Source: Gemmatimonadales bacterium
GTDB taxonomy: Bacteria; Gemmatimonadota; Gemmatimonadetes; Gemmatimonadales; GWC2-71-9
Direction of reading: 5' to 3'
Assembly: GCA_036499125.1 (NCBI GenBank)
Contig: DASYEH010000014.1
Coordinates: 53,156-117,155 of the forward strand
Length of the DNA: 64,000 nt
Shown here: piece by piece, positions 1 to 16,588 of the stretch
How positions within the stretch are numbered: position 1 is the first letter of the stretch
Layout of the letters: each line of letters opens with the position of its first letter
Notes under the pieces: generated by a model
What the model was told of the DNA's origin: nothing
The model's input: the letters and a program-made list of their open reading frames with translations, nothing else
Database searches by the model: none
Made by a program: the position numbers and the translations under genes

Positions 1-894
1 TCCCTCTGCTACAAACCGATGTTTGCGAGCGGCGCCTCCACAGTCTCACCAATCTTTCGTATCATCGACTCGTTCCGGGGCACCCTGGTCATTGACGAGG
101 GCGATTTTCGCTTTTCCGATGAACGGGCGGAGCTCATCAAGATCCTGAACAACGGTAACACCGCCGGATTTCCCGTCCTGCGGAGCGATGTGACGCCGAG
201 CAAGGAGTTCAATCCGCGGGCGTTCAACGTCTTCGGCCCGAAGATCATCGCGACCAGGCGCCTCTTCGACGACCGGGCACTTGAGAGCCGGTGCATAACC
301 GAGACCATGACAGGCCTGCCGCCCCGAGCTGGCATCCCATTCAGTCTGCCAGTGGCGTTCCATAGTGAAGCACTGACCCTTCGCAATCAGCTGCTGATGT
401 ACCGCTTTCGGACTTTCCGGACTCCGAGGTCAATGGATCGGGCAACTTCGCCAGAGATCGAGCCAAGAATATCTCAGGTCTACGCCCCGCTGCTCGCGGT
501 CATCAAGGATGAATCAGCCCAAGCTAGGGTGGTCGATCTTGCCAAGGCAGCGAGCCGAGCGATTCGGGCGGAGCGGGGAACGAGCATCGAAGCTGAGCTG
601 GTGGAAGCTCTCTACGAACTCCGGCAGGAAGGGGCGGCACTTTCGGTCAAGGCGATTGCCGAACGCTTTGCAGGGCGGTTTGGGGATGATTACCGACGTC
701 CCATCACTGCCCGCTGGGTTGGAAGTCAGCTCCGCAATCGGCTTTCGCTCCTTCCAGTCAAGACGCATGGGGCGTACGTCATCCCACCCACCGAAGAACG
801 GCGGCTGCAAGGATTGTTCGACCGGTACCGGCCGGGAGACCGGGGGACATTGGGGACAACGTGGTTGGACGACGAGAAGGGAAGCGTAGAGTAA
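1..894 (+). CDS. Mobile-element ATPase, C-terminal part (SF3/P4-type primase-helicase-like); 5' end lies outside the window
   Basis: Frame is open back to base 1. Walker-B-like TLVIDEGDF, then LIKILNNGN...FGPKIIATRRLFDDRALESRCI, resembling the motif C / arginine region of P4/D5-type helicases. GC is lower than in the core. Family call is by eye only. Confidence 0.4.
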   Translation, partial: SLCYKPMFASGASTVSPIFRIIDSFRGTLVIDEGDFRFSDERAELIKILNNGNTAGFPVLRSDVTPSKEFNPRAFNVFGPKIIATRRLFDDRALESRCITETMTGLPPRAGIPFSLPVAFHSEALTLRNQLLMYRFRTFRTPRSMDRATSPEIEPRISQVYAPLLAVIKDESAQARVVDLAKAASRAIRAERGTSIEAELVEALYELRQEGAALSVKAIAERFAGRFGDDYRRPITARWVGSQLRNRLSLLPVKTHGAYVIPPTEERRLQGLFDRYRPGDRGTLGTTWLDDEKGSVE

Positions 895-970
895 TCATAG
901 GAAATGGGCTGAGGGACGGGCGTCCGGATACCCTCCGGCGAACGTCCCCACATCCACCCGGGCGCAGGTG

Positions 971-1011
971 TTTGCCGTATCCGGCAAATCAGGTGACCTC
1001 GTGACGAGGTC
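971..1011. promoter_or_regulatory. Two palindromes immediately upstream of the XRE gene (candidate operators)
   Basis: TTTGCC-gtatcc-GGCAAA at 971-988. Perfect GACCTCG-TGA-CGAGGTC at 995-1011, 6-27 nt before the possible start codons at 1017/1023/1038. Confidence 0.3.
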
Positions 1012-1016
1012 GCGGG

Positions 1017-1406
1017 TTGGATATGCTCTGGATTGAAATGTCACACGATCTTCTCAAGACATATCTCCGCATGTACCGACGACGATCGGGACTAACCCAG
1101 GCCGATGTGGCATACCTGCTCGGCCGAGTCTCAGGGACCACACCGTCACGCCACGAAATGGCAACGCGGATCCCGACGCTTGAAATCCTGCTTGCGTATC
1201 AGGTAATGCTCGGAGTGTCGATTGGGGAGATCTACGAGGGCGAGCTTGCTCGGATTGATCGAGAGGTACGGGCGCGGGCGCGCGGATTGCGGCGGTATCT
1301 GGAGCACCGGCCTGCAACTGCTGACCTGCGCAGGCGGATCGTATATGTCCAGGGCCTCGAAGATTCTGCCGGCTTACCAGCGCACCCGCCCAAATCCCAT
1401 GCGTAA
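1017..1406 (+). CDS. XRE-family helix-turn-helix transcriptional regulator
   Basis: LRMYRRRSGLTQADVAYLLGRVSGTTPSRHE is a classic XRE HTH. The true start may be the ATG at 1023 or 1038. The stop (1404-1406) overlaps the next gene's ATG at 1399. Confidence 0.7.
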   Translation: MDMLWIEMSHDLLKTYLRMYRRRSGLTQADVAYLLGRVSGTTPSRHEMATRIPTLEILLAYQVMLGVSIGEIYEGELARIDREVRARARGLRRYLEHRPATADLRRRIVYVQGLEDSAGLPAHPPKSHA

Positions 1407-1932
1407 ACCATCGCCCAACCATTATCGCCTGTTGTCGATCGATCCGTCCCCTGCGGGATTTGGTTTTGCCATCATCGAAGGAGGATATCGCCTAGTCGAG
1501 TGGGGCGTGGCGCGCGTCTGGTCGACCAATGATCAAGAGTTTCTCGCAAGGGTGGAAAGCAGGATCGACCGATTTCGCCCCTCCGCCGTCGTGCTCCTCG
1601 ATCGCTCAGCCGACCGGCGTGAGAGCGGGGTGCTCAATCGCTGGCGTCTCCTGCAGCCGTATTGCACAAGCCGGTACCTTCCGGTCTTTTTGGTCAGTGG
1701 CTCACTGATCAAAGAGGTGTTTCGGTCAACCGGATCTACCAAAAGTCAAATCGCTTCTGCCATTGCCGAAGAGTTTCCTGAACTTGAGGGCCGGCTGCCC
1801 GCAACCCGGAAGGCCTGGATGTCGGAAGGCGAGCAGATGAATGTATTTGATGCCGTGTCGTTCATCGTCGCGCTGCGACACAAGTCGCCGCAATCTAAAG
1901 GGAGCAACAACGCTTCGTTAGGCAGGCCCTAG
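1399..1932 (+). CDS. RuvC-like / RNase H-fold nuclease-like protein
   Basis: ATG at 1399 chosen over the long upstream ORF. LLSIDPSPAGFGFAIIEG resembles the RuvC N-terminal (L/I)GIDPG strand. FRPSAVVLLD, YLPVFLVSGSLIKEV and NVFDAVSFIVAL follow the RuvC order of acidic-residue strands and helices. There is an 8-nt overlap with the XRE gene. Confidence 0.5.
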   Translation: MRKPSPNHYRLLSIDPSPAGFGFAIIEGGYRLVEWGVARVWSTNDQEFLARVESRIDRFRPSAVVLLDRSADRRESGVLNRWRLLQPYCTSRYLPVFLVSGSLIKEVFRSTGSTKSQIASAIAEEFPELEGRLPATRKAWMSEGEQMNVFDAVSFIVALRHKSPQSKGSNNASLGRP

Positions 1933-2417
1933 AACCCAAAGCCGTCGGGGCGCTGGCCATCTGTGGGCGGTACGCCGTACACGGTTGTCGCGAATGATCC
2001 GTGCACGATGTATCCGCTAGGCCCATTCGTCACGCTCGTCAGTGTTAGGGTGAAGGCATTATTGACGAGATTAAAGGTGCCCGGATCCACGTTTGCCCAC
2101 TGCGACGCCTCACCGGCGGCATTCTTGAATTGGCCGAGCACGATTTCGGCGCTCGCGACTCCGTTGCGTTCAGTGTATGTCCCGATCGCCGGTTGTCCGG
2201 TAAAGACCACTTGAGCGGTGTAGGTGGAATACAGATTGTTCGCCAGGATTGTCACGGTGGTCTCGTTCGAGGCGGCATTGTACGTAGCCGTGACACTCGG
2301 GCAGTCAGGGTTCGTGCCGGTGATGCAGGGTGGGCTTGATATGGCGTCAGAACTATCGCTGCATCCGGCCAGCTGGGCCCCGAGAACCAACGAGAGGAGC
2401 GGGACGAATCGTCGCAT
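1929..2417 (-). CDS. Lipoprotein, unknown function
   Basis: Start chosen at 2417 (MRRFVPLLSLVLGAQLAGCSD = signal peptide plus lipobox). GAGGA sits upstream. The longer 239-aa ORF has an implausible Arg/Cys-rich N-terminus. Confidence 0.6.
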   Translation of the reverse strand: MRRFVPLLSLVLGAQLAGCSDSSDAISSPPCITGTNPDCPSVTATYNAASNETTVTILANNLYSTYTAQVVFTGQPAIGTYTERNGVASAEIVLGQFKNAAGEASQWANVDPGTFNLVNNAFTLTLTSVTNGPSGYIVHGSFATTVYGVPPTDGQRPDGFGF

Positions 2418-2617
2418 TGGACTGTCCTCAGAAAGACGGTGAGTGTGGCGGCCGGCGCTATTTCCGCCCAGCGTTTTCCGGCTAGGGCGGCTGACCCGCC
2501 ATCTGGATTGGTGCCAGGCCTTCACGTTTAGGGGGACCGGGCGTATGATCCAGCGTGTACTAAAACAAATCGCACAAGATTTCGCACAGACGTTACTACG
2601 GCGCCAGGGCCCTGTCA

Positions 2618-2995
2618 ATGACCGGGGAGCCGCGGCGTACCCTTTCAACGCTTCGCGACGCGGTGCGGGGCAGGGTGGAGGCCACCTCGCTTCGCGTCGT
2701 GGCCGACGAGATCGGCATGAGCTTTAGCGGATTGCGGACGTTCCTTCAGGGCGCGAGACCGAATGAGGCTACCCGGTCGAAGGTCGTAGCATGGTATGTG
2801 TCATCACAGCAAGGATCGAAGGGGTCAATAACGGGCGACACCGATGTGGCCACCGCACTTGTCGCGGCTTTCGTTGCGAGGGCTTCCGGGAAGGCGAAAA
2901 CGCGGCGCGCAGTGGACGCTATGCGCCGCGTGTTGGAGGAATTGTCAGTGTCGGAACGGAGGGCCGTCCTCGAGGCCCTCGGGCGCGGTGATTAG
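2618..2995 (+). CDS. Hypothetical protein with HTH-like segment
   Basis: SLRVVADEIGMSFSGLRTFLQG looks like a helix-turn-helix. No further family signal. Confidence 0.4.
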   Translation: MTGEPRRTLSTLRDAVRGRVEATSLRVVADEIGMSFSGLRTFLQGARPNEATRSKVVAWYVSSQQGSKGSITGDTDVATALVAAFVARASGKAKTRRAVDAMRRVLEELSVSERRAVLEALGRGD

Positions 2996-3094
2996 TCGAG
3001 CGACTCTACCGTCATGCGGGAGTGATCATTCCCGCCAGGCAGACAAGAAGCCTTCGCTGGGTCACGCACACTATTGCCTTATCGCACCAGACGA

Positions 3095-3526
3095 TCATGG
3101 CAAATACTTCGGGCTTGCGATCCGTTGCACGTTAGCCCATGTCCATTCAAGTATGGTAGTTAGGCCAGCAACGGTCGACAAATCCTTGGAGCGGTTCGAT
3201 CGCAGCCCGATCACTGGAAAGTCCTTTGCCTGCAGACGCATCACCAGGTCGGCAACGCTGTCGGGCATCGATTTGCCTCCTTCAATCAGGACAACTGCGA
3301 AGTTGCAATCGGTCCAACGCTGATCACGGTCGACCTCAGCAAACGAGACGGTACTACAGAGTCTGCTAATGTGGAACAGGCCATTCTTACTCGCAGCTTG
3401 GGCTTCGAGCAGGTCGGCGAAACGCGCGTGTTCTGGGCTATAAATGACGAGCAGCCGTTTCACGTCTGATTCCTTATCATCGAGGGTTAGAATGGTGCAG
3501 GAGACCTCTGCCTTGACAATAACCAT
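3095..3526 (-). CDS. Hypothetical protein, possibly a degenerate receiver-like domain
   Basis: KRLLVIY...FAVVLIEGGKSMPDSVADLVMRLQAKDFPVIGLRSN resembles a CheY-like receiver but has Glu where the phospho-Asp would sit. The locus is low-GC. The N-terminal extension to 3691 is antisense to the transposase relic and was discarded. Confidence 0.3.
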   Translation of the reverse strand: MVIVKAEVSCTILTLDDKESDVKRLLVIYSPEHARFADLLEAQAASKNGLFHISRLCSTVSFAEVDRDQRWTDCNFAVVLIEGGKSMPDSVADLVMRLQAKDFPVIGLRSNRSKDLSTVAGLTTILEWTWANVQRIASPKYLP

Positions 3527-3596
3527 GGTTGCCTGGTTCGGCAGCCGACGCCGAAATGCCCAAACGTCAGCTGAAGTAGGGACGTATCTGCTCCGG

Positions 3597-4060
3597 ATTG
3601 ATCGCTCTCGGTTCGCAGGAGCGATGGACGATGGACTTTGTGTAGATCCGATGGCCGATGGTCGGCCGTTTCGGATGCTCACCGTGGTCAATCAGCGCAG
3701 TCGCTCCGGTCCGATCCTGGAGGCTGCCTTTTCGATCCGCGAACAGGACGTGGCGGCGGCGCTCGATCAGACGATCGCGATGCACGGCGCTCCGCGATCG
3801 ATCACCGTCGATCACGGCGCAGAGTGAGTGGGGCGTGCTGGGACTCTACAAGGCGCGGCGACCTCACGGATACCAGCCACATTGAGGTTATAATTGTCGG
3901 TTGTCCGGGATAGGTGCCTCAACGTCCACCAGTTCATGTCACCGACCGATGCGCGGGCGAAGGCGGGGGATTGTTGATGTGATTCTAATCAGGTCCGGCC
4001 ATACAGCTCGCTCGGTTACCTGACCCCCGTCAAGTGCGGAAGTCCATCAGGAAAAAGGAA
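3597..4060 (+). pseudogene. IS3-family transposase (OrfB / rve integrase core) relic
   Basis: AMDDGLCVDPMADGRPFRMLTVVNQRSR...GAPRSITVDHGAE matches the WAMDF..DGR.FR.LTVVD.FSR...G.P..I.VDNG.EF pattern. A stop at 3825 and roughly 50 missing codons follow. Then FMSPTDARAKAGDC*CDSNQVRPYSSLGYLTPV with an in-frame TGA at 3975. No intact ends or OrfA were seen. Confidence 0.7.
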
Positions 4061-4349
4061 TCGCGGAAGCGCGATCACTTTACGCCCACCTGCCGATAAA
4101 CGGGTCAAGTCCATTTTCGGTTGCCGTTACCGCCTGCGGCGCTAACTCGGCGGCTCACGCCCCCGGGTAGCCGCACAGTCGGATCGCGTTTTGTCCACGT
4201 CAGGGCTCCGAGGTTGCCGGTAGATCTCATCTGTAGCCGAAACGAGATTGTTATGAAGATTTCTTCACGATTGATGAACCTTGCGGCGAACTCGGTTACC
4301 GCACTAAAATAGCGTCGTCCCGCTCCCTCCCTCGTCTGCGGAGATCCCT

Positions 4350-4661
4350 TTGAAACGACCGAGCCGAATGGTCCCATCAATCGATTTGCTTCCGCCGCAA
4401 ATGCCCCAAGAGCGCAGGTTGCGGCTGATTCAGGCGCATCTTTGCTGCACTCCGGCACAGGCCAGAATCCTGCTGTGCTGCCCGAGCGGTCGGTCGTGTG
4501 CTGAGATAGCGGCGGAATTGAACCTTGCAGAGGGAACGGTTCGTTCTCATATGCATTCATTTTTCGAGCGGTCGCAATGCTTGGGCAGCAACCACGCGTC
4601 AGGCCTTGTAGCCTCCGTGCTTTGGCAAGTTGCCGCTGGACTCCTTAAGGACCCGGCATAG
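4350..4661 (+). CDS. LuxR/GerE-type HTH protein (HTH-only, possibly a remnant)
   Basis: TPAQARILLCCPSGRSCAEIAAELNLAEGTVRSHMHSFFER fits the LuxR C-terminal HTH pattern (LT..E..VL.L...G.S..EIA..L.IS..TV..H). TTG start. No receiver or ligand domain. Confidence 0.45.
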   Translation: MKRPSRMVPSIDLLPPQMPQERRLRLIQAHLCCTPAQARILLCCPSGRSCAEIAAELNLAEGTVRSHMHSFFERSQCLGSNHASGLVASVLWQVAAGLLKDPA

Positions 4662-5238
4662 ACGGTCTACTACGTGCTAACACTGGATTGCCCTAGAATT
4701 CGCGCGCGCAATCGCCCGGCCCCACTCGGATTGAGTCATATAGCTTCGACTGACGTGAGATGCTCGGGCGCGGAACGGTGTCGTGACGGGCCGTACGATT
4801 GTTCGGCAAATCATATGAACTCTTTCCACGTCCCCGTGCGGTTGGGCGAGATCCGCTTGGTGCGATTCACCGTGAGCATCGTGAAGAAGCGCTCGGTCGT
4901 CGCACTATTCAGACAGTCGGCCGAATGACTCATCTTGCAGGGGAACCCAACCTCGACTCGGCGCTGCGTTTCGAATGGCTCGCAACCTGACTGCCACGCT
5001 CTGAGTGTCGCGCGCGCCGACGCATGCAAAGGTCCGTCACTGCGTCAGGCCGGTGTTGTTCGAGTAATAACGGCCGCAAGGACACGCCCAAATGGACGGC
5101 GACGTATCGCCCCTTTGCTCCGTCAGAGTGTACCATGCGGTCTACACCGATAGGTCTATATCGTTCGGTCGTATTTCATAACAAACGGATATGCGGTAAC
5201 GTTCTATTTCATTCAGGAGCAAAACGCTCGGAGGCAAC

Positions 5239-5922
5239 GTGTCGGATCGCCGTTTAGGTGCACTGATTATACCTGTAGTTCAGGCAATCTGCGTTGTAAT
5301 CGTCACAGTAGCGATCGTTCGCCACGAATTTTTTTCTGCAAACACAAGGCAGTCGATTGCGACCACCAAACTGTCGCAAGCGCAGTGGCGAGGTGTACTA
5401 GCGGGTGGACACTGGATGGGATCACCGAAAGCGCTCGTGACAGTGGTTGAGTTTGGCGATTTTCAATGCCCGGCTTGTCGCGTGTTCAGCACGGTTAGTC
5501 TTCGTGGAGTACGGGCAAAGTACGGAGACAGTGTTGGCGTATTGTTTCGCCATTGGCCACTTGCCTATCATGAACACGCCTATGCGGCTGCCCGGGCGAG
5601 CGAATGCGTTGCAGCGGAAGGCTCATTCGAGCGCTTCTTTGACGCGGTTTACGACAAGCAGGACTCGCTAGGCCTTCGGCCGATCGAGGCGTTTGCACGA
5701 GACGCTGGCGTTCAAGATTCCAGTGCCTTCGCGACGTGCAATGCGAGCAAGCTTCCCGTTGAGGCGATTGAGGTGGATCGCAAAGAGGCGCTCTCTCTCC
5801 ATGGCTCGGGCACTCCAACAATAATCGTTAATGGCGTTCAACTTGGTGGTGTTCCGGACAGCATTGCCTTTGATGAGCTCGTTGGCAAGGCTCTCAAAGC
5901 CGCGATTCGCAACAGCAAGTGA
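5239..5922 (+). CDS. DsbA-family thiol:disulfide oxidoreductase, N-terminally membrane-anchored
   Basis: GTG start with CGGAGG 5-10 nt upstream. TM helix LGALIIPVVQAICVVIVTVAIV. Thioredoxin-fold motif VVEFGDFQCPACRVF (CPAC). C-terminal GSGTPTIIVNG. Confidence 0.8.
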   Translation: MSDRRLGALIIPVVQAICVVIVTVAIVRHEFFSANTRQSIATTKLSQAQWRGVLAGGHWMGSPKALVTVVEFGDFQCPACRVFSTVSLRGVRAKYGDSVGVLFRHWPLAYHEHAYAAARASECVAAEGSFERFFDAVYDKQDSLGLRPIEAFARDAGVQDSSAFATCNASKLPVEAIEVDRKEALSLHGSGTPTIIVNGVQLGGVPDSIAFDELVGKALKAAIRNSK

Positions 5923-5944
5923 CTACCGTCGTGTCTTGTGTCCG

Positions 5945-7108
5945 ATGGAGTCCAACGTGAAACTGCGTGTCGTTATTGGACGCGGTGTTGCGGCCGTCCT
6001 AATCATGGCGTCGTGCAAAGATGACAGCTCTCAATGGAGGCTTGATCTGCCTTCAGGGGTGAGCGAACATGGGCCGCGGGACACAATCGTTGCGCCCCTC
6101 ATGCTAACGGAAGTTCGTCGCATTAGCTTTGACAGCAATGCCTCGCTGTTGACGCCGATGACCGTTAGTGCAAGTGGCGTTGTTGCCGTTTTCGACTACA
6201 CTACGTGCGGATTCTATCTGCTCCAACTCCCCACTGGCGATTCGATCGGTCACGCCGGAAGCTGTGTTCCCGTGAAGCGGTTCGGTCAAGCACGTGGGGC
6301 CTTTTTCCTCGGCGATACTCTTGTCGTCTTCGATGGTCGAACTCACGAGCTCATACGATTCGATCGTATTGGTGATGAGCTTGGCAGAGTCCAAGCGCCG
6401 GGATCGCTAGCCATGACTGGGGCGTTACGAGTAAGCTCGATGAGCGTAGTCGGTGGCGACACCGTTCTCGCCGATCGTGACCTAGCAGCAACGAGTGTCG
6501 ATGGACGGTTGGTCGTATTTACAATGACTAGTGACGGCGCGGTCGCAACGTTTCTCGCCGATGTACCCGGAAGTCGTGCTAATGGAGAGTCTGAGCCGAT
6601 TCTGGGAATCCGTGGCTGCAGCGCGGATTGGAACGGGCGACATCGAATCGTCGCTACGCAGCCGTGGAGTTTTGAAGCGGTTATTTTCGATGAGAAACAC
6701 TCCCCGTTGTGGTCGGTCTATATCCCATTGTCTTGGACGGGCGCCCACCAAGCGCCGGACCATTCACTAGGTGCAGTTTGGCCCAAAGCAACTCTTCGAA
6801 CGCCACTGTGCGGGTCATGGGGAACGCTACTGCGCTTTGGAAGGGTAGACCCTTTCGTGTTTCGGACGTCGACCTATCCGAACGGTGGGCACCTTGAGTT
6901 ATGGGATTCAATCGGGCAACGACGGTTGGCGGTAGACGTTGGCAACGGCCATTCGTATCTATTCGGTGCAGCGGTTACCTGGAAGGATCTCATCGTTTTC
7001 GAGGACGGCGATTCACGGCTTCGCGTTTTTCAGCTCCAACAACTTTCGCAGAGGACTAGCGGGGCGTCCCACAGAGGCAACATTGCCATTCGGGTGCTGC
7101 CCAATTGA
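5945..7108 (+). CDS. Exported beta-propeller lipoprotein (6-bladed-propeller-like family)
   Basis: Start at 5945 gives MESNVKLRVVIGRGVAAVLIMASCKDD (lipobox). Repeated blade-like segments. The C-terminus (LELWDSIGQRRLAVDV...LIVFEDGDSRLRVFQL) parallels the other three propeller paralogues in this window. Confidence 0.6.
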   Translation: MESNVKLRVVIGRGVAAVLIMASCKDDSSQWRLDLPSGVSEHGPRDTIVAPLMLTEVRRISFDSNASLLTPMTVSASGVVAVFDYTTCGFYLLQLPTGDSIGHAGSCVPVKRFGQARGAFFLGDTLVVFDGRTHELIRFDRIGDELGRVQAPGSLAMTGALRVSSMSVVGGDTVLADRDLAATSVDGRLVVFTMTSDGAVATFLADVPGSRANGESEPILGIRGCSADWNGRHRIVATQPWSFEAVIFDEKHSPLWSVYIPLSWTGAHQAPDHSLGAVWPKATLRTPLCGSWGTLLRFGRVDPFVFRTSTYPNGGHLELWDSIGQRRLAVDVGNGHSYLFGAAVTWKDLIVFEDGDSRLRVFQLQQLSQRTSGASHRGNIAIRVLPN

Positions 7109-7248
7109 AACGTCGGAAGCTGCAAAGCTGGGTTTGGCGCGCTGCAGTGGCGCCAATGATGTGGCGGGCAGAGTTTGACGTCCGCTAGCAGGCGCGACCA
7201 ACGGAAATCCGTCCGTTTCGCGAGTCAGACCAAAGCATCGGAGGGGTT

Positions 7249-7500
7249 GTGAAAGCGCTGATTGCGAAGGTTTTGGTGCCCGCGTTTTTTGCGGTTGCAG
7301 TTGTCATGGTGTATTCTCCAACGCAGGCGGTTGCGCGAGAGACTGGCGGGTCGTACTGCGGTGGGGTACCCTCGAACGGCTGTTGCGATTGCGACGGAGG
7401 AGTTGCCGGAAACTCTTGTGAAGCGAACAATGACTCGGGATATTTTGAATGCAGTTCGTCAGGCTGCCCAACCGTGCAGGCGAAATGTAAAGTCAACTGA
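7249..7500 (+). CDS. Small secreted cysteine-rich protein (83 aa precursor, 8 Cys in a ~54-aa mature part)
   Basis: GTG at 7249 preceded by GGAGGGG (7240-7246). Signal peptide MKALIAKVLVPAFFAVAVVMVYSPTQAVA. Mature ETGGSYCGGVPSNGCCDCDGGVAGNSCEANNDSGYFECSSSGCPTVQAKCKVN. Followed by a perfect terminator. Confidence 0.6.
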   Translation: MKALIAKVLVPAFFAVAVVMVYSPTQAVARETGGSYCGGVPSNGCCDCDGGVAGNSCEANNDSGYFECSSSGCPTVQAKCKVN

Positions 7501-7507
7501 CTGCTGT

Positions 7508-7543
7508 GAGACACGGCCGGACTAAATTGGCCGGCCGTGTCTC
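7508..7543 (+). terminator. Intrinsic terminator hairpin after the Cys-rich peptide gene
   Basis: Perfect 13-bp stem GAGACACGGCCGG / CCGGCCGTGTCTC with a 10-nt loop, followed by the T-rich AAGTATTTGTT. It begins 8 nt after the stop codon. Confidence 0.75.
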
Positions 7544-7600
7544 AAGTATTTGTTCGAAACGACCGATATACTTCAGACCATCCGCAATATCCCTATATGC

Positions 7601-8833
7601 ATGGAGTCATACGTGATGTTGATCTCATGGCCTGATCGGTTCCGGCAATTGATCGCTGTTTCAGTATTACTGCTCACTGTCTTCCGCGGCGGCAGCGCAC
7701 AGTCACGCGGTCGCCAAACGAGGGTGATTCGCGGGGACACCATCGTGGCACATTTGCCGAACGTTGGCCGGTGGGGGCCGCCACGGGTTGCAACTCCGCT
7801 TCCGCAAAGCGCTCAACAGCTTGCGCAGGAATTCGGCAATGTGACCGGTTTGGCAGCATTGCCAAATGGCGGTGTGCTGGCTTTCGACGCAGGTGGTCAG
7901 TCGGGGCCCTCACTCCTAGAGTTTGATTCCGCCGGGAGATTTGTAAAGACGATTGGGCGGGAAGGGGCTGGTCCGGGCGAATACACTCATCGCGCAGGTG
8001 ATATCGCGGTTGCTGGAAATGGGCAGATATTTCTCCGCGATGGCGTCCATGGGAGGATCAATCATTACGATCGTGATGGGAGGCTACTAGGTACAATCAC
8101 TTCATCGGCAATTCTGCCGATTTTCAAGGGCATGTCACCCCAGGAAGACGGCTCTGTGTTTGTCCTTTCTCCCGGCCTTGGGACTGGTGAAGATGCACCA
8201 ACGATGAGTCATTTCTCGCCCAGCGGAGCCCTAATCGAGGTGCGATCCCCGCCAGTCCAACCATATTCCACGGTGATCTATGGTGGACCGTTTCTACCTT
8301 TTTCGGCATGGACAATCCTACAAAATGGACGGACGGTCTCAGTTAGGTCAGACCGAGCTGGAATACTTCTGAGTCCTGCTCATGGGAGCCACACGTTTAG
8401 GTTGACAGAGATTGAAAGTCAGGCTGAACGTTTTTTCCCGGCTGAGCGCGCTGAAATGCAAGCGCAAATCGATTGGTACGTCAAATATGACCCTCGTGAT
8501 ATGCCGATCAGGACGGTCGTACCTTCAGTCAAACAGTTCATTATATCTCTGGCGGTTGATGTGAACAACAGGATCTGGGTTCGCCGGACTGGTGTATCAA
8601 TCAAGAGTGCTGAAGGCATTCCTTTGCCCAAGCCGAACGAACCACCGCTTGTTACATACAAGGAGCCATGGATATTCGATGGATTCACAGCCGAGGGTGA
8701 TTTTTTGGGAGAGGTCCGTTTTCCCTCAAATATAGTTCGAGTTTCAATTGCCAACGATATTGCGTGGGCTATCGTTACGAATGTCAATGACGAGCAATCG
8801 CTAGTAAGATTCCGACTGCCAGCCGGACAATAA
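7601..8833 (+). CDS. Exported beta-propeller protein (GAGPGE-motif 6-bladed-propeller-like family)
   Basis: Start taken at ATG 7601 (7616 is also possible; TTG 7550 abuts the terminator). Signal peptide LIAVSVLLLTVFRGGSAQ. IGREGAGPGEYTHRAGDIAVAGNGQIFLRD and repeated blade motifs. C-terminal IWVRR...VRFPSN...LVRFRL is shared with the paralogues. Confidence 0.65.
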   Translation: MESYVMLISWPDRFRQLIAVSVLLLTVFRGGSAQSRGRQTRVIRGDTIVAHLPNVGRWGPPRVATPLPQSAQQLAQEFGNVTGLAALPNGGVLAFDAGGQSGPSLLEFDSAGRFVKTIGREGAGPGEYTHRAGDIAVAGNGQIFLRDGVHGRINHYDRDGRLLGTITSSAILPIFKGMSPQEDGSVFVLSPGLGTGEDAPTMSHFSPSGALIEVRSPPVQPYSTVIYGGPFLPFSAWTILQNGRTVSVRSDRAGILLSPAHGSHTFRLTEIESQAERFFPAERAEMQAQIDWYVKYDPRDMPIRTVVPSVKQFIISLAVDVNNRIWVRRTGVSIKSAEGIPLPKPNEPPLVTYKEPWIFDGFTAEGDFLGEVRFPSNIVRVSIANDIAWAIVTNVNDEQSLVRFRLPAGQ

Positions 8834-8842
8834 CGATATTGG

Positions 8843-9064
8843 TCACCCTGACCACATCCACTCAATGATCGTAGACATGAACTGCGCTTCTGGTCGATTG
8901 TGGCCCGTCTCCCAGTTATTGACGGTGTCCTTCGTTACTCCGAAAATCGTGGCGACGTCCCTCTGGAGCAGCCCGATTTCAATCCGGTGCGCGCGAATCT
9001 GATCACCTAAGTGCTTGACTTGTTTGGGGTAACCAGGCTTCGGGCGGACCGTTCTAAGCCTCAC
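8843..9064 (-). CDS. XRE-family HTH regulator (short PGYPK...LG..IR..R type)
   Basis: PGYPKQVKHLGDQIRAHRIEIGLLQRDVATIFGVTKDTVNNWETGHNRPE. GTG start at 9064, only 13 nt from the comM fragment. Confidence 0.7.
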   Translation of the reverse strand: MRLRTVRPKPGYPKQVKHLGDQIRAHRIEIGLLQRDVATIFGVTKDTVNNWETGHNRPEAQFMSTIIEWMWSG

Positions 9065-9077
9065 CGGTATTTGCGCA

Positions 9078-9563
9078 ATGAATCCCTGCCCATGCGGCTT
9101 CCTGGGTGATCCTTCGCGCGCGTGCAGCTGTGCGCCAGCCGCAGTGCAGCGCTATCACGCCCGGATCTCAGGGCCGCTGCTCGATCGCATCGACATGCAC
9201 TTGCAGGTGCCCCCGGTGGCATACGCCGACCTCGCGTCACGCGCGGCGGGCGAATCGAGTGCGACGGTGCGGAGCAGGGTCGAGGCGGCGCGCGACCGTC
9301 AGCTGCAGCGCTTTCGGCATTGCCCGGGGATCTACGCCAACGCGCACATGGGGCCGCGAGAGTTGTCGCGGTTCGTGAGCATCGATGGCCCGACCGAACA
9401 GGTGCTGAAGAGCGCGATTGCGAAGTTCGGGTTGTCCGCGCGCGCATATCACCGGGTACTCAAGCTGGCGCGGACGCTGGCGGACCTGGCGGGCGTCGAC
9501 GAAATCGCGCCGGTACATGTGACCGAGGCGATTCAGTACCGGGTGCTTGATCGGGGGGAGTGA
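9078..9563 (+). pseudogene. comM: comM/yifB (Mg-chelatase-like AAA+ competence protein), 3' fragment only
   Basis: Begins at the conserved (A)MNPCPCG motif and continues LLDRIDMHLQV...SARAYHRVLKLARTLADLAG...HVTEAIQYR, which is the ComM C-terminus. In-frame stops lie at 9000 and 9030 upstream. About 340 N-terminal codons (the AAA+ core) are absent. Confidence 0.8.
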
Positions 9564-9704: not shown

Positions 9705-11030
9705 ATGAGGGAAGTGACGCTGCTGGTCCTCGCGTTCCTGGGCGGGGTGCTGACGATCCTGAGCCCCTGCATCCTGCCGGTCATTCCGCTGGTCTTCGCG
9801 CGGGTCAATCGCGACTTCCGCCGCGAGATCATTCCGATGCTCGGCGGGCTGGCGCTGGCCTTTACCTGTGCCGCGCTGATCGCCACCGCCACCGCCCGCT
9901 GGCTCCTCGCCGCCAATGAAATCGGTCGCGACCTGGCGCTGGCGCTGCTCGCCGTTGTTGGCGTGACGCTGCTGCTTCCCGCCAGCGCCACGCTGCTCGC
10001 CCGTCCGTTGGGCCGGATCGCTGGTCGGGTCCTTTCCCCCCGCCCAGGCTCGGTCGCCACACCGGCCCGCAATGTCGTCATCGGCGCAGCGATTGGCCTC
10101 CTCTGGGCGCCATGCGCCGGGCCGATCCTCGGACTCCTGATCGCCGCAGCCGCCACCAGCAGCTGGTCCCACGCGGCCCTCCTCTACCTGAGCTTTGCTC
10201 TCGGTGCCATCATGTCGCTCGCGATCGTGACCTCCGCCGGTCGTCGCCTCATCGCCGCGCTCCGTCACGTTGGCACGCCCGATCTTGTCGTACGCCGCGT
10301 GCTCGGCGTCGCAACACTCGTGACCGTCCTCGCCATCGTCTTTGGCTGGGATCAGGCGATCTTCGGGAAGGCTGGGCTGGTACAGACCGCCAGTGCGGAG
10401 GAAGTCCTCGTGTCGCGGCTGGCGCCACAGCACGTGCGCTCCGACAATGCGGGATTGTCCCTCGACCAGTTCGCCGCCCAACAGTCTGCTCACCGCGCCG
10501 CGCTGGCGGCACTGCCCGCATCGGACGGCGTGATGCCCGGATTCGACGGCGCCACCGAGTGGATCAACTCGCCACCGCTGACAGCCAAGTCGCTGCGCGG
10601 CAAGGTCGTGCTGGTGGAGTTCTGGACCTTCGCGTGCTACAACTGCCTCAACGCCCTGCCGCACATCAAGGCGCTCTACGCCAAGTACAAGGATCGTGGC
10701 TTCGTGGTGATCGGCGTGCACACGCCCGAGCTGGCGCGCGAGCGGGTGCCCGAGAATGTCCGCCGAGAGGTGAAGCGTCTCGGCATCGAGTTCCCGGTCG
10801 TGATCGACAACGACAACCGGATCTGGAATGCCTATCACAATGAGTACTGGCCGGCGATGTTTTACGTCGACGCGAGCGGACAGATGCGCTTCCACATGTT
10901 CGGTGAAGGGCGCTATGGTGAGCAGGACAATGGTGTGGCTGCGCTGCTGGACGAACGGGATGCCATGATGCATTACGACCCGGGCACGGCGAAGATCGGC
11001 GCGATGGGCGGCGGCGGGATGTCGCGGTAA
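9705..11030 (+). CDS. dipZ: DipZ-like fusion: CcdA/DsbD-type thiol-disulfide transporter plus thioredoxin-like (redoxin) domain
   Basis: TM-domain motifs LSPCILPVIP and LWAPCAGP. Periplasmic GKVVLVEFWTFACYNCLNALPHI (CxxC) and GVHTPE. Confidence 0.85.
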   Translation: MREVTLLVLAFLGGVLTILSPCILPVIPLVFARVNRDFRREIIPMLGGLALAFTCAALIATATARWLLAANEIGRDLALALLAVVGVTLLLPASATLLARPLGRIAGRVLSPRPGSVATPARNVVIGAAIGLLWAPCAGPILGLLIAAAATSSWSHAALLYLSFALGAIMSLAIVTSAGRRLIAALRHVGTPDLVVRRVLGVATLVTVLAIVFGWDQAIFGKAGLVQTASAEEVLVSRLAPQHVRSDNAGLSLDQFAAQQSAHRAALAALPASDGVMPGFDGATEWINSPPLTAKSLRGKVVLVEFWTFACYNCLNALPHIKALYAKYKDRGFVVIGVHTPELARERVPENVRREVKRLGIEFPVVIDNDNRIWNAYHNEYWPAMFYVDASGQMRFHMFGEGRYGEQDNGVAALLDERDAMMHYDPGTAKIGAMGGGGMSR

Positions 11031-11032
11031 CC

Positions 11033-11653
11033 ATGACGCCTGCTGGCGATTCGCACCCCCGGCCGAAGCTCGCGGTTGCAACTGCAGTACAGGCCGGGCT
11101 GCGCGAGCGGCTTCTGGCGCGGGACGAGACGGCCTTGGCCGAGCTGGTCGACCTGGCGTCACCATGGCTCCTGGGCGTGACCGAATCGATCCTGCGCGAT
11201 CGCAGCGAAGCGGAAGAGGTCGTCTTCGATGTCTTCGATACTGCGTGGCAGAAAATCGGTGAAGTGGAACCCGAGCGCGGCGGGCTGATGCCGTGGCTCC
11301 TCAGGGTCGCCCGGAACCGGGCGATCGACCGCCTCCGCCGGCGCAACCGTCGGCTCCGCACCATAGACAGCGCCCGCGCGAGTGGCGTGCTCGGCGACGA
11401 CATCACGGCGCCACCGGATGTGAATGAAGCCGGAACACCTGGCTGGCACGTGCATGCGCAAGTGCACGCCGCCCTGGCCGCGTTACCCGACGAGCAACGT
11501 GCCCCGGTGCGGTTGGCATACTTCCATGGCCTGACCCATTCGGAGATTGCCCGCGAGCTCTCGATTCCAATGGGGACAGTCAAGACGCGACTCAGGCTGG
11601 CGTTTGATCGGCTCCGGCCGGCGCTGGCGTCACTGAAGGATTGGGTGCAATGA
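11033..11653 (+). CDS. ECF-type RNA polymerase sigma-70 family factor
   Basis: Region 2 WLLRVARNRAIDRLRRR. Region 4 ALPDEQRAPVRLAYFHGLTHSEIARELSIPMGTVKTRLRLA. Starts 2 nt after the dipZ stop. Confidence 0.9.
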   Translation: MTPAGDSHPRPKLAVATAVQAGLRERLLARDETALAELVDLASPWLLGVTESILRDRSEAEEVVFDVFDTAWQKIGEVEPERGGLMPWLLRVARNRAIDRLRRRNRRLRTIDSARASGVLGDDITAPPDVNEAGTPGWHVHAQVHAALAALPDEQRAPVRLAYFHGLTHSEIARELSIPMGTVKTRLRLAFDRLRPALASLKDWVQ

Positions 11654-12375
11654 CCTCACATGACTGGTTCATCGAACATCGTACCGCGTGGATCGCGCGC
11701 GCGCTCGACGCCGAAGAGGAAACGAGCTACCGCGATCACCTCGCCCGCTGTGCCGAGTGTCGCGACGCGGTGGCCGAACTGCAGCGCGAGTTCGGCTGGC
11801 TCTCAATGGGGGTTGAACCGGTGGCGCCGCGTCCCGGATTTCGCCGCGAAGCGCTCGATCGGATTGTCGGTGCGCGTCGTCGCCGTCGCAGCTGGATCCT
11901 CCCGACGGCGCTCGCGGCGTCACTACTCCTCTCCCTCGGCGTCAATGGCTATCAACGTGCCAGGATCGTGGCGCTTGATGCCAGTACGGCCGTAACACAG
12001 ACCTCGGTCGTGGCCCTGCGCGACACACTCTCGGTGCAGCGCGATGCCGGACAGGTGATGCACGCCGATTTCGCGGCGAGCGGCGCGCCGTGCAGCATCA
12101 CCATCATTGCCGATGGTCACACTCATCGCTGGGACGTCGTTGTGCACGGCCTTCCACCAGCGCAGCCCGGGCAGAAGTACCAGTTCTGGTTCATCACCGA
12201 CGACGGCATGCGGCAGGGTGTCTCGATCGACGCGGTACCGGGGAGAGTGTCCACCTTCCTGACCGGGATGCCTCCCGGCCATGCTCGCGTCATGGGGGCG
12301 GCGCTCAGCATCGAACCGCGGGAGAACGACGGCACCGAGATGCAGGGGGCCGAGCTCGCCAAGATCATGATGTGA
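11650..12375 (+). CDS. Anti-sigma factor, zf-HC2 N-terminus plus RskA-like C-terminal domain
   Basis: ATGA overlap with the sigma gene. HLARCAECRDAV (H-x3-C-x2-C). One TM helix (WILPTALAASLLLSLGV). C-terminal GLPPAQPGQKYQFWFITDDG...GAALSIEPRENDG fits the RskA pattern. Confidence 0.8.
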   Translation: MTSHDWFIEHRTAWIARALDAEEETSYRDHLARCAECRDAVAELQREFGWLSMGVEPVAPRPGFRREALDRIVGARRRRRSWILPTALAASLLLSLGVNGYQRARIVALDASTAVTQTSVVALRDTLSVQRDAGQVMHADFAASGAPCSITIIADGHTHRWDVVVHGLPPAQPGQKYQFWFITDDGMRQGVSIDAVPGRVSTFLTGMPPGHARVMGAALSIEPRENDGTEMQGAELAKIMM

Positions 12376-15259: not shown

Positions 15260-16360
15260 CTACAGCCGGCAACTCAGCAGCGTCTGGAAGCCGTCTGCCT
15301 GCTCGGCGGCAACATAGAGGCGGTCGTCGTACACCGCGCTGAGCGAAGTCTTGGCGGGCAGCATCAACGAACGGACTGGCACACCCCGCGCCGACAACAG
15401 CGTCCAGACCTGACGGGGTTCGCCGAAGGTCGACCGGAGGATCCAGAAGCGGCCCTGGTTGTCCATCCGGGCGCTGAAGGCTGCCGCGAAGGCGGCCGGC
15501 TTTGGTGTCTCCGCTCGAACCTTGGCGGCCTGCTGCGGATCGAGTCCCCGCACCATCGATGCAAGGACAGCTTCATAGTCAGCCGTGGTCACGGCACGCG
15601 GCCCCAGCATCGTCGTGGTGTCCAGCAGTCGCGCTCCGGCTTGACCAAGGCACTGCAGGTGAATGTCCGACACCGTGCCCGACGTGACGGCACACCATTC
15701 CGAGCCATCCGGAGTCCATGCTGGGAGAACCAGCCGCATCGTAAAGGGTGTCGGGCCGCTCGCGCCGCCGGTACGGAGGTTTTCTGGTGCGGGGAAGGCG
15801 CCGAGTGTGTCGAGCGGCTGGCCTGGAGTGTAGGCGAGGAAGACGACATTCGGATTGGCGGCAGCCATCTGCCCGATCCCCACCGAGCGCCCGCCGGCTG
15901 CGCGGACCCAGTAGCCCGGCATCGGCGGGGTCAGCGTGGTCAGGTATTTCCCATTGACGGTATACGCGACCGACCGCCCTTGGCGATAGTCGCTGACCCA
16001 GAGCGTATCAGCGACCCACCACGATGGGCCGATCGAATAGAACTCACCCGGTCCGGCCCCGCTTCGACCGAGCAGGGTGTCGCGTCCATTGGCGTGCAGG
16101 TGAATTGCGGTCGCCCGGCTTCCGGCGCTCCAGGCCAGCGCACCGTTCGGACCCGGTGCGACGGTGGAGATCGTGCCGACATCGGACTGCGCCGACGAGA
16201 CGGCGGTGTCGCAATGGGAGATGTCAAAGCTCGGAAACGCCGCTGAATCGGTCGTCTCGCCGCGGTGGCAGGCAAGGCACAGGAATGGAATGAGGATCAG
16301 GCCGCTGCGGCGAAGCAACGCAACGCCGGAAGGTGTGCCGATCAGCCGGGCTGGCTGCAT
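15260..16360 (-). CDS. Beta-propeller lipoprotein (GAGPGE-motif family paralogue)
   Basis: Start at 16360 gives MQPARLIGTPSGVALLRRSGLILIPFLCLACHRG (lipobox). LLGRSGAGPGEFYSIG. C-terminal GRFWILRS...LMLPAKT...LYVAAE parallels 7601-8833. Confidence 0.6.
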   Translation of the reverse strand: MQPARLIGTPSGVALLRRSGLILIPFLCLACHRGETTDSAAFPSFDISHCDTAVSSAQSDVGTISTVAPGPNGALAWSAGSRATAIHLHANGRDTLLGRSGAGPGEFYSIGPSWWVADTLWVSDYRQGRSVAYTVNGKYLTTLTPPMPGYWVRAAGGRSVGIGQMAAANPNVVFLAYTPGQPLDTLGAFPAPENLRTGGASGPTPFTMRLVLPAWTPDGSEWCAVTSGTVSDIHLQCLGQAGARLLDTTTMLGPRAVTTADYEAVLASMVRGLDPQQAAKVRAETPKPAAFAAAFSARMDNQGRFWILRSTFGEPRQVWTLLSARGVPVRSLMLPAKTSLSAVYDDRLYVAAEQADGFQTLLSCRL

Positions 16361-16588
16361 GATGGCCTCTTGTTGCTGGGGGAAGGAGAGCAGCGCGAGG
16401 GGCGCGATGGGGCTCCACCTCGACGATAACCCCGGATCAGCTTTTTGGCGCGCAAACGCCGGCGCCCGTGCATCCCCACTGCCACCCCGCGTCTCCCAAC
16501 CGGTGCCGTTACTGGCAGCCCGGCAGGATGGTCGCGCTGGATCTCCCGGCCCGGACCGCTCCGCCAACCTCATTCCACGGAGTCTCTC

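Follow-up and report, generated by a model that had tools for sequence, protein, structure and literature searches.

The stretch of DNA analyzed here, 64,000 nucleotides (nt) from a Gemmatimonadales bacterium (assembly GCA_036499125.1, contig DASYEH010000014.1, positions 53,156 to 117,155 of the forward strand; hereafter the window), carries near its left end a small gene that is predicted to encode a secreted mini-protein with eight cysteines, followed by a strong hairpin (Table 1). An initial annotation of this DNA had described the gene and the hairpin as a stand-alone expression unit. As that annotation had it, the GTG start codon lies 2 nt (TT) behind a GGAGGGG Shine-Dalgarno (SD) sequence, which we confirmed by direct reading. 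The reading frame is open from position 7189, following a TAG codon at 7186-7188, and the GTG at 7249 is the first start codon in it. The spacing of the core motif from the start codon (GGAGG-N4-GTG) is identical to that of the upstream gene for a DsbA-like protein. The two other neighboring genes are preceded by GGAG-N6-GTG (lipoprotein gene) and GGAG-N9-ATG (propeller gene), and a GGAG motif is therefore found in all four of these same-strand genes.

The product reads MKALIAKVLVPAFFAVAVVMVYSPTQAVA up to the predicted cleavage site and RETGGSYCGGVPSNGCCDCDGGVAGNSCEANNDSGYFECSSSGCPTVQAKCKVN beyond it. Its N-terminus consists of MKALIAK, the hydrophobic stretch VLVPAFFAVAVVMVY and SPTQAVA, followed by RETGG. 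As hallmarks of a Sec (type I) signal peptide we took a positive n-region, a hydrophobic h-region made up of 10-15 uncharged residues, a small residue at both -3 and -1, and the absence of both a lipobox cysteine and a twin arginine. The mini-protein has a positively charged n-region, an h-region of 15 residues and A-V-A at -3 to -1, and it has neither a lipobox cysteine nor a twin arginine. Cleavage after A-V-A is predicted from these regions and from a heuristic signal-peptide test. The mature part comprises 10 glycines, eight cysteines, seven serines and five asparagines, and has no tryptophan. The cysteines are at residues 37, 45, 46, 48, 57, 68, 73, and 80, with the spacing C-x7-CC-x-C-x8-C-x10-C-x4-C-x6-C; their number is even, and every one of them lies beyond the predicted cleavage site. 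The signal peptide ending in AVA, the Gly/Ser/Asn-rich mature part of ~54 amino acids (aa) and the cysteine spacing were all described in this form at the outset and can be read directly from the sequence. There is also a Gly-Gly pair at residues 33-34 (7345-7350), four residues past the predicted signal-peptidase site, which superficially resembles a double-glycine motif. As a processing motif it is probably coincidental, because a hydrophobic Sec-type core precedes it.

Table 1. Features of the mini-protein locus (window coordinates) and the accessory genes of four analogous loci (coordinates of each locus)
Feature	Position	Strand	Basis or remark
Small LuxR/GerE-type helix-turn-helix (HTH) protein	4350..4661	+	Pfam GerE 1.7e-6
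Membrane-anchored DsbA-like thiol-disulfide oxidoreductase, CPAC site	5239..5922	+	Pfam Thioredoxin_4 6.6e-22, DSBA 7.6e-11
Orphan lipoprotein (MKLRVVIGRGVAAVLIMASC...), lipobox LIMASC	5957..7108	+	Logan gene call; GTG start
Shine-Dalgarno GGAGGGG	7240..7246	+	Read directly; GGAGG core 4 nt 5' of GTG start
Mini-protein gene	7249..7500	+	83 codons and TGA stop; list of open reading frames
Predicted Sec (type I) signal peptide, residues 1-29	7249..7335	+	n/h/c regions by inspection and heuristic
Mature domain, 54 aa, 8 Cys, Gly/Ser/Asn-rich, net charge -3	7336..7497	+	
Hairpin, 14-bp perfect stem and 10-nt loop, then AGTATTTGTT	7507..7544	+	Fold and window-wide hairpin scan
Exported DUF5128-type six-bladed beta-propeller, 405 aa, signal peptide	7616..8833	+	Pfam PF17170
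Single-Cys transmembrane (TM) accessory protein	L018 329-1102; L020 5816-6535; L041 11085-11843; L079 10954-11580		

The hairpin begins 6-7 nt past the stop codon, and not 8 nt as first given. The perfect 13-bp stem that the initial annotation had reported (arms 7508-7520 and 7531-7543) is present, and pairing of T7507 with A7544 extends it to 14 bp. Its folding energy is -34.6 kcal/mol (z = -6.1), and none of 200 shuffled sequences was as stable. No other perfect hairpin in the 64 kb is as long; including this one, just five have at least 10 bp, compared to 0-3 in shuffled sequences. When the structure was tested as an intrinsic terminator, the stem proved excellent and the U-tract interrupted. 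A consensus terminator scan did not list it, probably on account of its 10-nt loop, which exceeds the 3-8 nt limit of the scan. The sole Rfam match (Chloroflexi-1) was far under threshold, at 26 bits versus 80. The hairpin occurs once in the window, and the possibility that it is a repeated element was rejected. Judging from its sequence and position, the structure is likely to be a terminator, an attenuator, or a 3'-end stabilizer.

The mini-protein gene is one of four consecutive genes on the same strand whose products all appear, by inspection of their sequences, to be exported: the DsbA-like protein, a lipoprotein, the mini-protein, and a beta-propeller. The translation of the DsbA-like gene shows an N-terminal hydrophobic anchor and the active-site sequence FQCPACRVF. 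The GTG start of the lipoprotein gene, at 5957, is 34 nt past the stop codon of the DsbA-like gene. Both genes flanking the mini-protein gene had been taken for propeller genes. This was correct for the downstream gene, whose product matches PF17170 with 28.4 bits (cut-off 22.9), although only profile positions 66-129 of 321 are covered; its homologues are 25-31% identical over 96% of the length, and the full-length ones also carry PF17170. It was not borne out for the upstream gene. The lipoprotein has no family match and no homologue beyond itself, and no similarity to the downstream propeller was found by BLASTP. Its hhalign probability is 0.2% against the propeller-2 family and 5.7% (E = 0.0067), a faint and non-significant value, against the propellers of the cassettes described below. 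An AF2 (AlphaFold2) model of it is all-beta but unreliable (pLDDT 34).

The gap between the lipoprotein gene and the mini-protein gene (7109-7248) measures 140 nt, as first stated. We found no sigma-70-like promoter in this gap, nor any structure above background that could terminate the upstream operon (z = -0.16). Therefore, of the isolation on both sides that had been ascribed to the gene, only that on the 3' side, where the strong hairpin lies, is supported.

Homologues of the mini-protein were sought in several collections. A word-indexed search of 5.8 billion protein clusters returned only the mini-protein itself, from the Logan assembly of SRR11833507. Exhaustive phmmer comparison with 1.84 billion representatives yielded no homologue, only the protein itself and four giant repeat proteins. 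The latter (Ig-like or peritrophin proteins of 1,486-3,125 aa) were rejected, as a short motif that is matched 6-9 times inflates the score; in the apparent peritrophin-A repeat protein, the match is a 17-residue motif repeated nine times. Likewise, no homologue of the mini-protein came up when 185,579 species genomes and 241 million metagenome contigs were scanned in the manner of tblastn, and there was no match to it in Pfam-A, NCBIfam, or PHROGs (E <= 0.1), PADLOC (0.01), or the PDB sequences (10). It had been proposed beforehand that lack of conservation of the frame or of the cysteines in related islands would count against a gene. No homologue was found in any collection, which formally is that outcome; however, it is not decisive, since the searches brought up no truly related island either.

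Base for base, the window matches a 673-kb contig of the Joint Genome Institute (JGI; L008, JGI 3300036781, Ga0376653_0000026) and the Logan contig, and therefore there is no natural variation to analyze. On the Logan contig, Prodigal called the lipoprotein, mini-protein, and propeller genes intact, and the mini-protein frame is the sole open reading frame (ORF) at the locus ever to have been called by a gene predictor. Two further ORFs overlap it, at 7185-7514 (minus strand) and 7262-7525 (plus strand). The earlier remark that these lack comparable signals was borne out, in that neither has an SD sequence, a signal peptide, or a Pfam match. In the JGI annotation of the region corresponding to 5900-8900, the lipoprotein is cut to 231 aa and the propeller is split into calls of 49 aa and 143 aa; gene calling thus fails on this compositionally foreign island.

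Each feature of the mini-protein gene is weak by itself. The gene occupies a gap of 507 nt, otherwise empty, between genes on the same strand. When the sequence of this gap was shuffled, a plus-strand ORF of 83 aa or more appeared in 15% of cases, and one that also has GGAG or GAGG 4-14 nt upstream in 1.6%. (That the gap represents a degraded propeller copy was tested and rejected.) Of the ORFs in the window, 452 have 50 aa or more; a crude signal-peptide test was passed by 14 of these, nearly all of the 14 being long and evidently real genes. A Cys-rich mature part was found in just one of those 14, the mini-protein, with 14% cysteine compared to no more than 2% in the others. At least eight cysteines are found in seven of 332 short ORFs in the window. 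Combined, these features are not plausibly due to chance.

We also looked at other genomes that encode relatives of the propeller. The family is almost wholly confined to Gemmatimonadota (Gemmatimonadales, Longimicrobiales, Palauibacter), with a few members in Rhodothermales, Bacteroidota, and Acidobacteriota, and its genes are often in tandem. The loci of the closest homologues (L002-L007) contain tandem propellers and propeller fragments, and no Cys-rich peptide gene. Two small called genes at L002 7323-7782 (the same in L003-L005) were rejected as peptide genes; they are a deletion pseudogene of a third propeller copy, comprising its N-terminal lipoprotein signal and its C-terminal 110 aa, with the middle lost. 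Eighty genome loci with propellers were then screened for small ORFs that combine a signal peptide with a Cys-rich mature part, and credible candidates were found at four of them, which we refer to as L018, L020, L041, and L079.

In L018 (Gemmatimonas), four tandem genes for 6-Cys proteins of 67-69 aa (1181-2392) are located directly upstream of the propeller gene, and a recent segmental duplication there takes in the 3' end of the neighboring gene. L020 (Gemmatimonadales) has three copies (4400-4605 and 6563-7043) around the propeller gene, two of them intact and one degenerate. Each intact gene has a strong SD sequence and a GC hairpin, one of which is a textbook terminator, GGCCGGCA-gcaa-TGCCGGCC-TTTTT, and a GerE regulator also flanks this cassette. 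The peptides of L018 and L020 form a previously unnamed family of acidic, secreted 6-Cys proteins of 67-69 aa with the pattern G-C-x-C-x9-C-x6-C-x6-C-x3-C; a metagenome scan with the family alignment revealed no further members. L079 (Palauibacter) encodes two dissimilar secreted proteins rich in cysteine; they are flanked on either side by a propeller-like protein, of which the downstream one bears a lipoprotein signal. L041 (Rhodothermales) has a single Cys-rich peptide gene upstream of a propeller lipoprotein gene, near a tyrosine recombinase. The recombinase-like ORF (7842-8945, recognized by eye from its sequence) lies between the propeller that seeded the locus and the cassette of Cys-peptide, propeller, and TM-protein genes, which hints that this cassette may be mobile too.

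The peptides of all four loci have a Sec signal, are encoded on the same strand as the propeller behind a strong SD sequence, and have 6-8 cysteines, a mature part of 36-90 aa, and a net charge of -2 to -11. They are not alignable between L018/L020, L041, and L079. The propellers of the L079 and L041 cassettes are homologous to the propeller family of the window (hhalign probability 98.6%, E = 1e-15). In addition, exactly these four of the 80 loci encode a conserved membrane-anchored protein of ~210-260 aa with a single conserved cysteine (Table 1; hypergeometric P = 2e-5), which lies in a beta-strand-like context (ITASDCGWS, IGSPDCAWS, IGSSACDF). That this protein has a (monothiol) thioredoxin fold was unconfirmed, as comparisons with Pfam, with PDB profiles, and with the DsbA-like protein of the window by hhalign were all negative. 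In the window, the DsbA-like protein takes the corresponding position.

All four loci resemble that of the window in having a Sec-signal peptide, its acidic character, a strong SD sequence, an adjoining same-strand gene for a homologous propeller lipoprotein and, in L020, a 3' hairpin. They differ in cysteine pattern (in the 6-Cys family of L018 and L020, C-x-C-x9-C-x6-C-x6-C-x3-C versus that of the mini-protein) and in having the single-Cys TM protein as an accessory in place of a CPAC-containing DsbA-like enzyme. The sole resemblance in sequence between this family and the mini-protein is a short motif, C-E-x(3,4)-S-G-x-[YFW]-x-C.

The four genes are located on what appears to be an inserted island. 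From position 1 to ~9070 the GC content is 56-59%, compared to ~65% elsewhere in the window, and most of the genes are orphans. In the JGI contig, this low-GC region continues upstream for 3.6 kb or more beyond the start of the window; at its other end is a comM/YifB gene (9078-9563) from which the first ~344 codons are missing. Based on the lower GC content, the orphan genes, and the truncated comM, we conclude that the region was inserted. It looks like a mobile element inserted in comM, which is a familiar target of such elements. Mobile elements that target comM have been reported (PMC10293859). An XRE-type HTH gene (8843-9064, minus strand) is found at the junction of the island and comM. 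The small GerE-type HTH protein is a possible regulator of the cassette, the assignment being weak. Just past the island, the host region from 9705 to 12375 encodes a DsbD_2/AhpC-TSA fusion, an ECF (extracytoplasmic function) sigma factor, and an RskA-type anti-sigma factor (Pfam marks in the JGI contig). The DsbA-like gene of the island thus lies beside a host envelope thiol-redox and stress module, which may be a coincidence. Further away, a host ORF at 15260-16573 (minus strand) has, at 15929-16183, weak similarity to the NHL-like blade region of the island propeller (E = 5e-5, 32% over 91 aa), and so the host has a distant propeller relative of its own.

Some known systems are similar in layout. 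In mau clusters, a small disulfide-rich periplasmic protein is encoded together with a ~40-kDa beta-propeller and a dedicated DsbA/thioredoxin-like factor. The propeller fold in question is that of the MauB heavy chain. The roles of MauD and MauE and the six disulfides of the MauA light chain have been described, MauD being a thioredoxin-fold CXXC protein that is required for the disulfides (bioRxiv 10.64898/2026.03.05.709764). However, there is no match to the Pfam families Me-amine-dh_L or Me-amine-dh_H. The mature mini-protein has no tryptophan, so that the TTQ (tryptophan tryptophylquinone) cofactor, which is made from two tryptophans, is impossible, and the mini-protein does not belong with MauA. 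Furthermore, no mauE, mauG, or cytochrome genes were found, and the signal of the mini-protein is Sec-type rather than Tat-type. The resemblance to mau is one of architecture only. Hydrophobins, non-specific lipid-transfer proteins (nsLTPs), hevein domains, and knottins are eukaryotic mini-proteins of similar size that are secreted and have eight cysteines with a CC doublet. To our knowledge, the cysteine spacing of the mini-protein fits the consensus of none of them (their profiles were compared via Pfam only), and it has no Pfam or PDB sequence match to these families. A literature search returned nothing relevant on DUF5128, NVEALA, cysteine-rich secreted proteins of Gemmatimonadota, or a cassette of this kind. 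As far as its sequence goes, the mini-protein belongs to no described family.

On balance, we lean toward the joint reading that the mini-protein gene is real, that its product is exported by Sec, and that it is part of a cassette. We regard the gene as real because of the SD geometry, the combination of signal peptide and cysteines, the hairpin, the DsbA-like neighbor, and the recurring architecture. The idea of a stand-alone unit was not supported; the surroundings and the recurrent loci indicate a multi-gene cassette, and the gene probably belongs to such a cassette, hitherto undescribed, rather than acting alone.

Several observations weigh against this reading. In the absence of homologues, there is no evidence of purifying selection on the mini-protein. 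The JGI annotation of the identical contig skipped the ORF. A codon model trained on island genes, which picked the correct frame in 36 of 39 benchmark windows, gave the whole ORF +1.3 bits versus +8.0 for the antisense ORF at 7185-7514. An AF2 single-sequence model of the mature part is unusable (pLDDT 45). The tail of the hairpin has 5-6 T in 8, an interrupted and only partial U-tract. Only four of the 80 propeller loci contain a peptide gene of this kind, and the window lacks the single-Cys TM accessory protein that those four share. The mini-protein did not match a hidden Markov model (HMM) of the L018/L020 family (hmmsearch, -8.1 bits), nor is it alignable with the peptides of the other cassettes (shuffle z from -0.4 to 1.05). 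The parallel with these cassettes is thus one of architecture and physico-chemistry, and not of demonstrable homology.

As to the codon scores, the signal-peptide segment (7249..7335) taken by itself scores +7.7 bits, the best of six frames. The deficit is located in the mature part, where the eight cysteine codons alone cost 10.7 bits. Scoring of synonymous codons only had no power, and GC content by codon position was uninformative (the third-position GC content, GC3, of island genes is ~0.5, without bias).

Among the other explanations, the one that fares best is that the gene has a promoter of its own and forms an autonomous mono-cistronic unit of high expression, which would encode a secreted bacteriocin- or toxin-like peptide with no functional tie to its neighbors. 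The 140-nt upstream gap and the strong 3' hairpin would suit such a unit, and the peptides of the analogous loci are highly variable, tandemly duplicated, and near mobility genes, as genes of antagonism often are. The Gly/Ser-rich, anionic composition of the mini-protein recalls class II microcins, which have the same character. In bacteroidetocin (class IIf) clusters, the gene for a Cys-containing peptide is accompanied by that for a membrane protein and by a dedicated thiol oxidoreductase gene (PMC6671954), and the window likewise has a thiol oxidoreductase gene, that of the DsbA-like CPAC protein, near the peptide gene. However, bacteroidetocins and microcins have a 15-aa double-glycine leader and a C39-peptidase ABC (ATP-binding cassette) exporter. 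Such a leader, which we defined as a hydrophilic stretch of 15-20 aa ending in GG or GA, is not found in the mini-protein, which has a hydrophobic Sec signal that in a diderm cell leads no further than the periplasm. Neither an ABC nor a C39 domain was detected in the island ORFs that were scanned (window 1-9070 and 3.6 kb upstream in the JGI contig), and neither was another outer-membrane export gene found in the island. The mini-protein has eight cysteines, compared to 2-4 in those peptides, and no sequence similarity to them; it is also acidic, and not cationic. In addition, the upstream gap contains no promoter-like site and the upstream gene is followed by no terminator-like structure, and the recurrent adjacency to homologous propellers suggests a functional link. 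We therefore consider an autonomous toxin-like unit unlikely.

Slightly less probable, in our view, is that there is no gene here, but rather an ORF that arose by chance in a long spacer between genes of a foreign island, with the hairpin as the terminator of an operon of the DsbA-like and lipoprotein genes or as some other DNA or RNA element. The mini-protein is, after all, a total orphan, and long ORFs are not rare in shuffles of the gap. Three long ORFs overlap at this place, implying that several frames are poor in stop codons. The overall codon score, the omission by the JGI caller, and the lack of a predicted fold point in the same direction. Yet the JGI caller failed on the demonstrably real propeller gene too. 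An SD-to-start geometry identical to that of a neighbor, an n/h/c signal peptide with AXA, and eight cysteines confined to the mature part occur together once in 452 ORFs, and analogous peptide genes adjoin homologous propellers in four other genomes. Moreover, a terminator of the upstream operon would be expected near 7110, and not 400 nt downstream.

Finally, it is very improbable that the antisense ORF at 7185-7514 (109 aa) is the real gene and the plus-strand ORF its shadow: it has the top codon-model score, which is typical of true genes (6.6 +/- 4.3 bits), and is the longest ORF at the locus, but its GTG start lies inside a hairpin arm with no SD sequence upstream, it has no signal peptide, TM segment, or family match, its Pro/Thr/Ser/Gln-rich sequence is the expected complement of Cys/Gly codons, its wobble positions are shared with the mini-protein frame in what appears to be the usual shadow-ORF register, no pipeline has ever predicted it, and it would be a lone minus-strand gene wedged among four plus-strand genes.

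If the gene is real and belongs to a cassette, as we favor, it would be the third of four envelope genes (DsbA-like, lipoprotein, mini-protein, and beta-propeller) on the island of low GC content next to the truncated comM. The mini-protein would be exported by Sec and cut by signal peptidase I after Ala29, and the acidic mature peptide of 54 residues would then fold oxidatively, with the formation of at most four disulfides. This step would probably be catalyzed by the membrane-anchored DsbA-like enzyme, whose gene lies 1.3 kb upstream and is also on the plus strand. The genes may be co-transcribed, in which case the hairpin would end or stabilize the transcript, such that the peptide message would be in excess over that of the propeller gene that follows, as is familiar from the peptide structural genes of bacteriocin operons. 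The propeller gene itself would be served by read-through or by a weak internal promoter.

As to what the mini-protein might do, we tentatively suggest that it is a disulfide-knotted binding partner (a ligand, an inhibitor, or a small subunit) of the co-encoded propeller and lipoprotein, although we would put this at somewhat less than an even chance. A wider interpretation, which we regard as doubtful, is that Gemmatimonadota and Rhodothermales share a horizontally mobile envelope cassette, so far undescribed, and that the locus is an example of it. Such a cassette would pair Sec-exported, acidic, disulfide-knotted, highly variable, and often tandem mini-proteins with DUF5128-type propeller lipoproteins and a membrane-anchored, thiol-active accessory protein (DsbA-like here, single-Cys TM elsewhere). 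It would constitute a polymorphic system of the ligand-receptor or toxin-immunity type, in which the peptide evolves too fast for homology to be detectable.

Apart from a few enzyme subunits and bacteriocins, the small disulfide-rich proteins that diderm bacteria export have hardly been studied, and the Gemmatimonadota, which are abundant in soil, are very little characterized genetically. Small disulfide-rich proteins that are exported and have an oxidoreductase of their own are known as a kind; a recurring cassette architecture in an understudied phylum is new, and it is testable. The locus is also a concrete case of a plausible gene that was overlooked by standard metagenome annotation, and it bears on the number of small secreted proteins that are missing from protein databases. 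Should the mini-protein be real and work together with the propeller lipoproteins, this would be a cassette of a new sort, with a DsbA-like enzyme devoted to the maturation of a private substrate, and it would provide the first functional handle on the DUF5128-type propellers, a large paralogous family.

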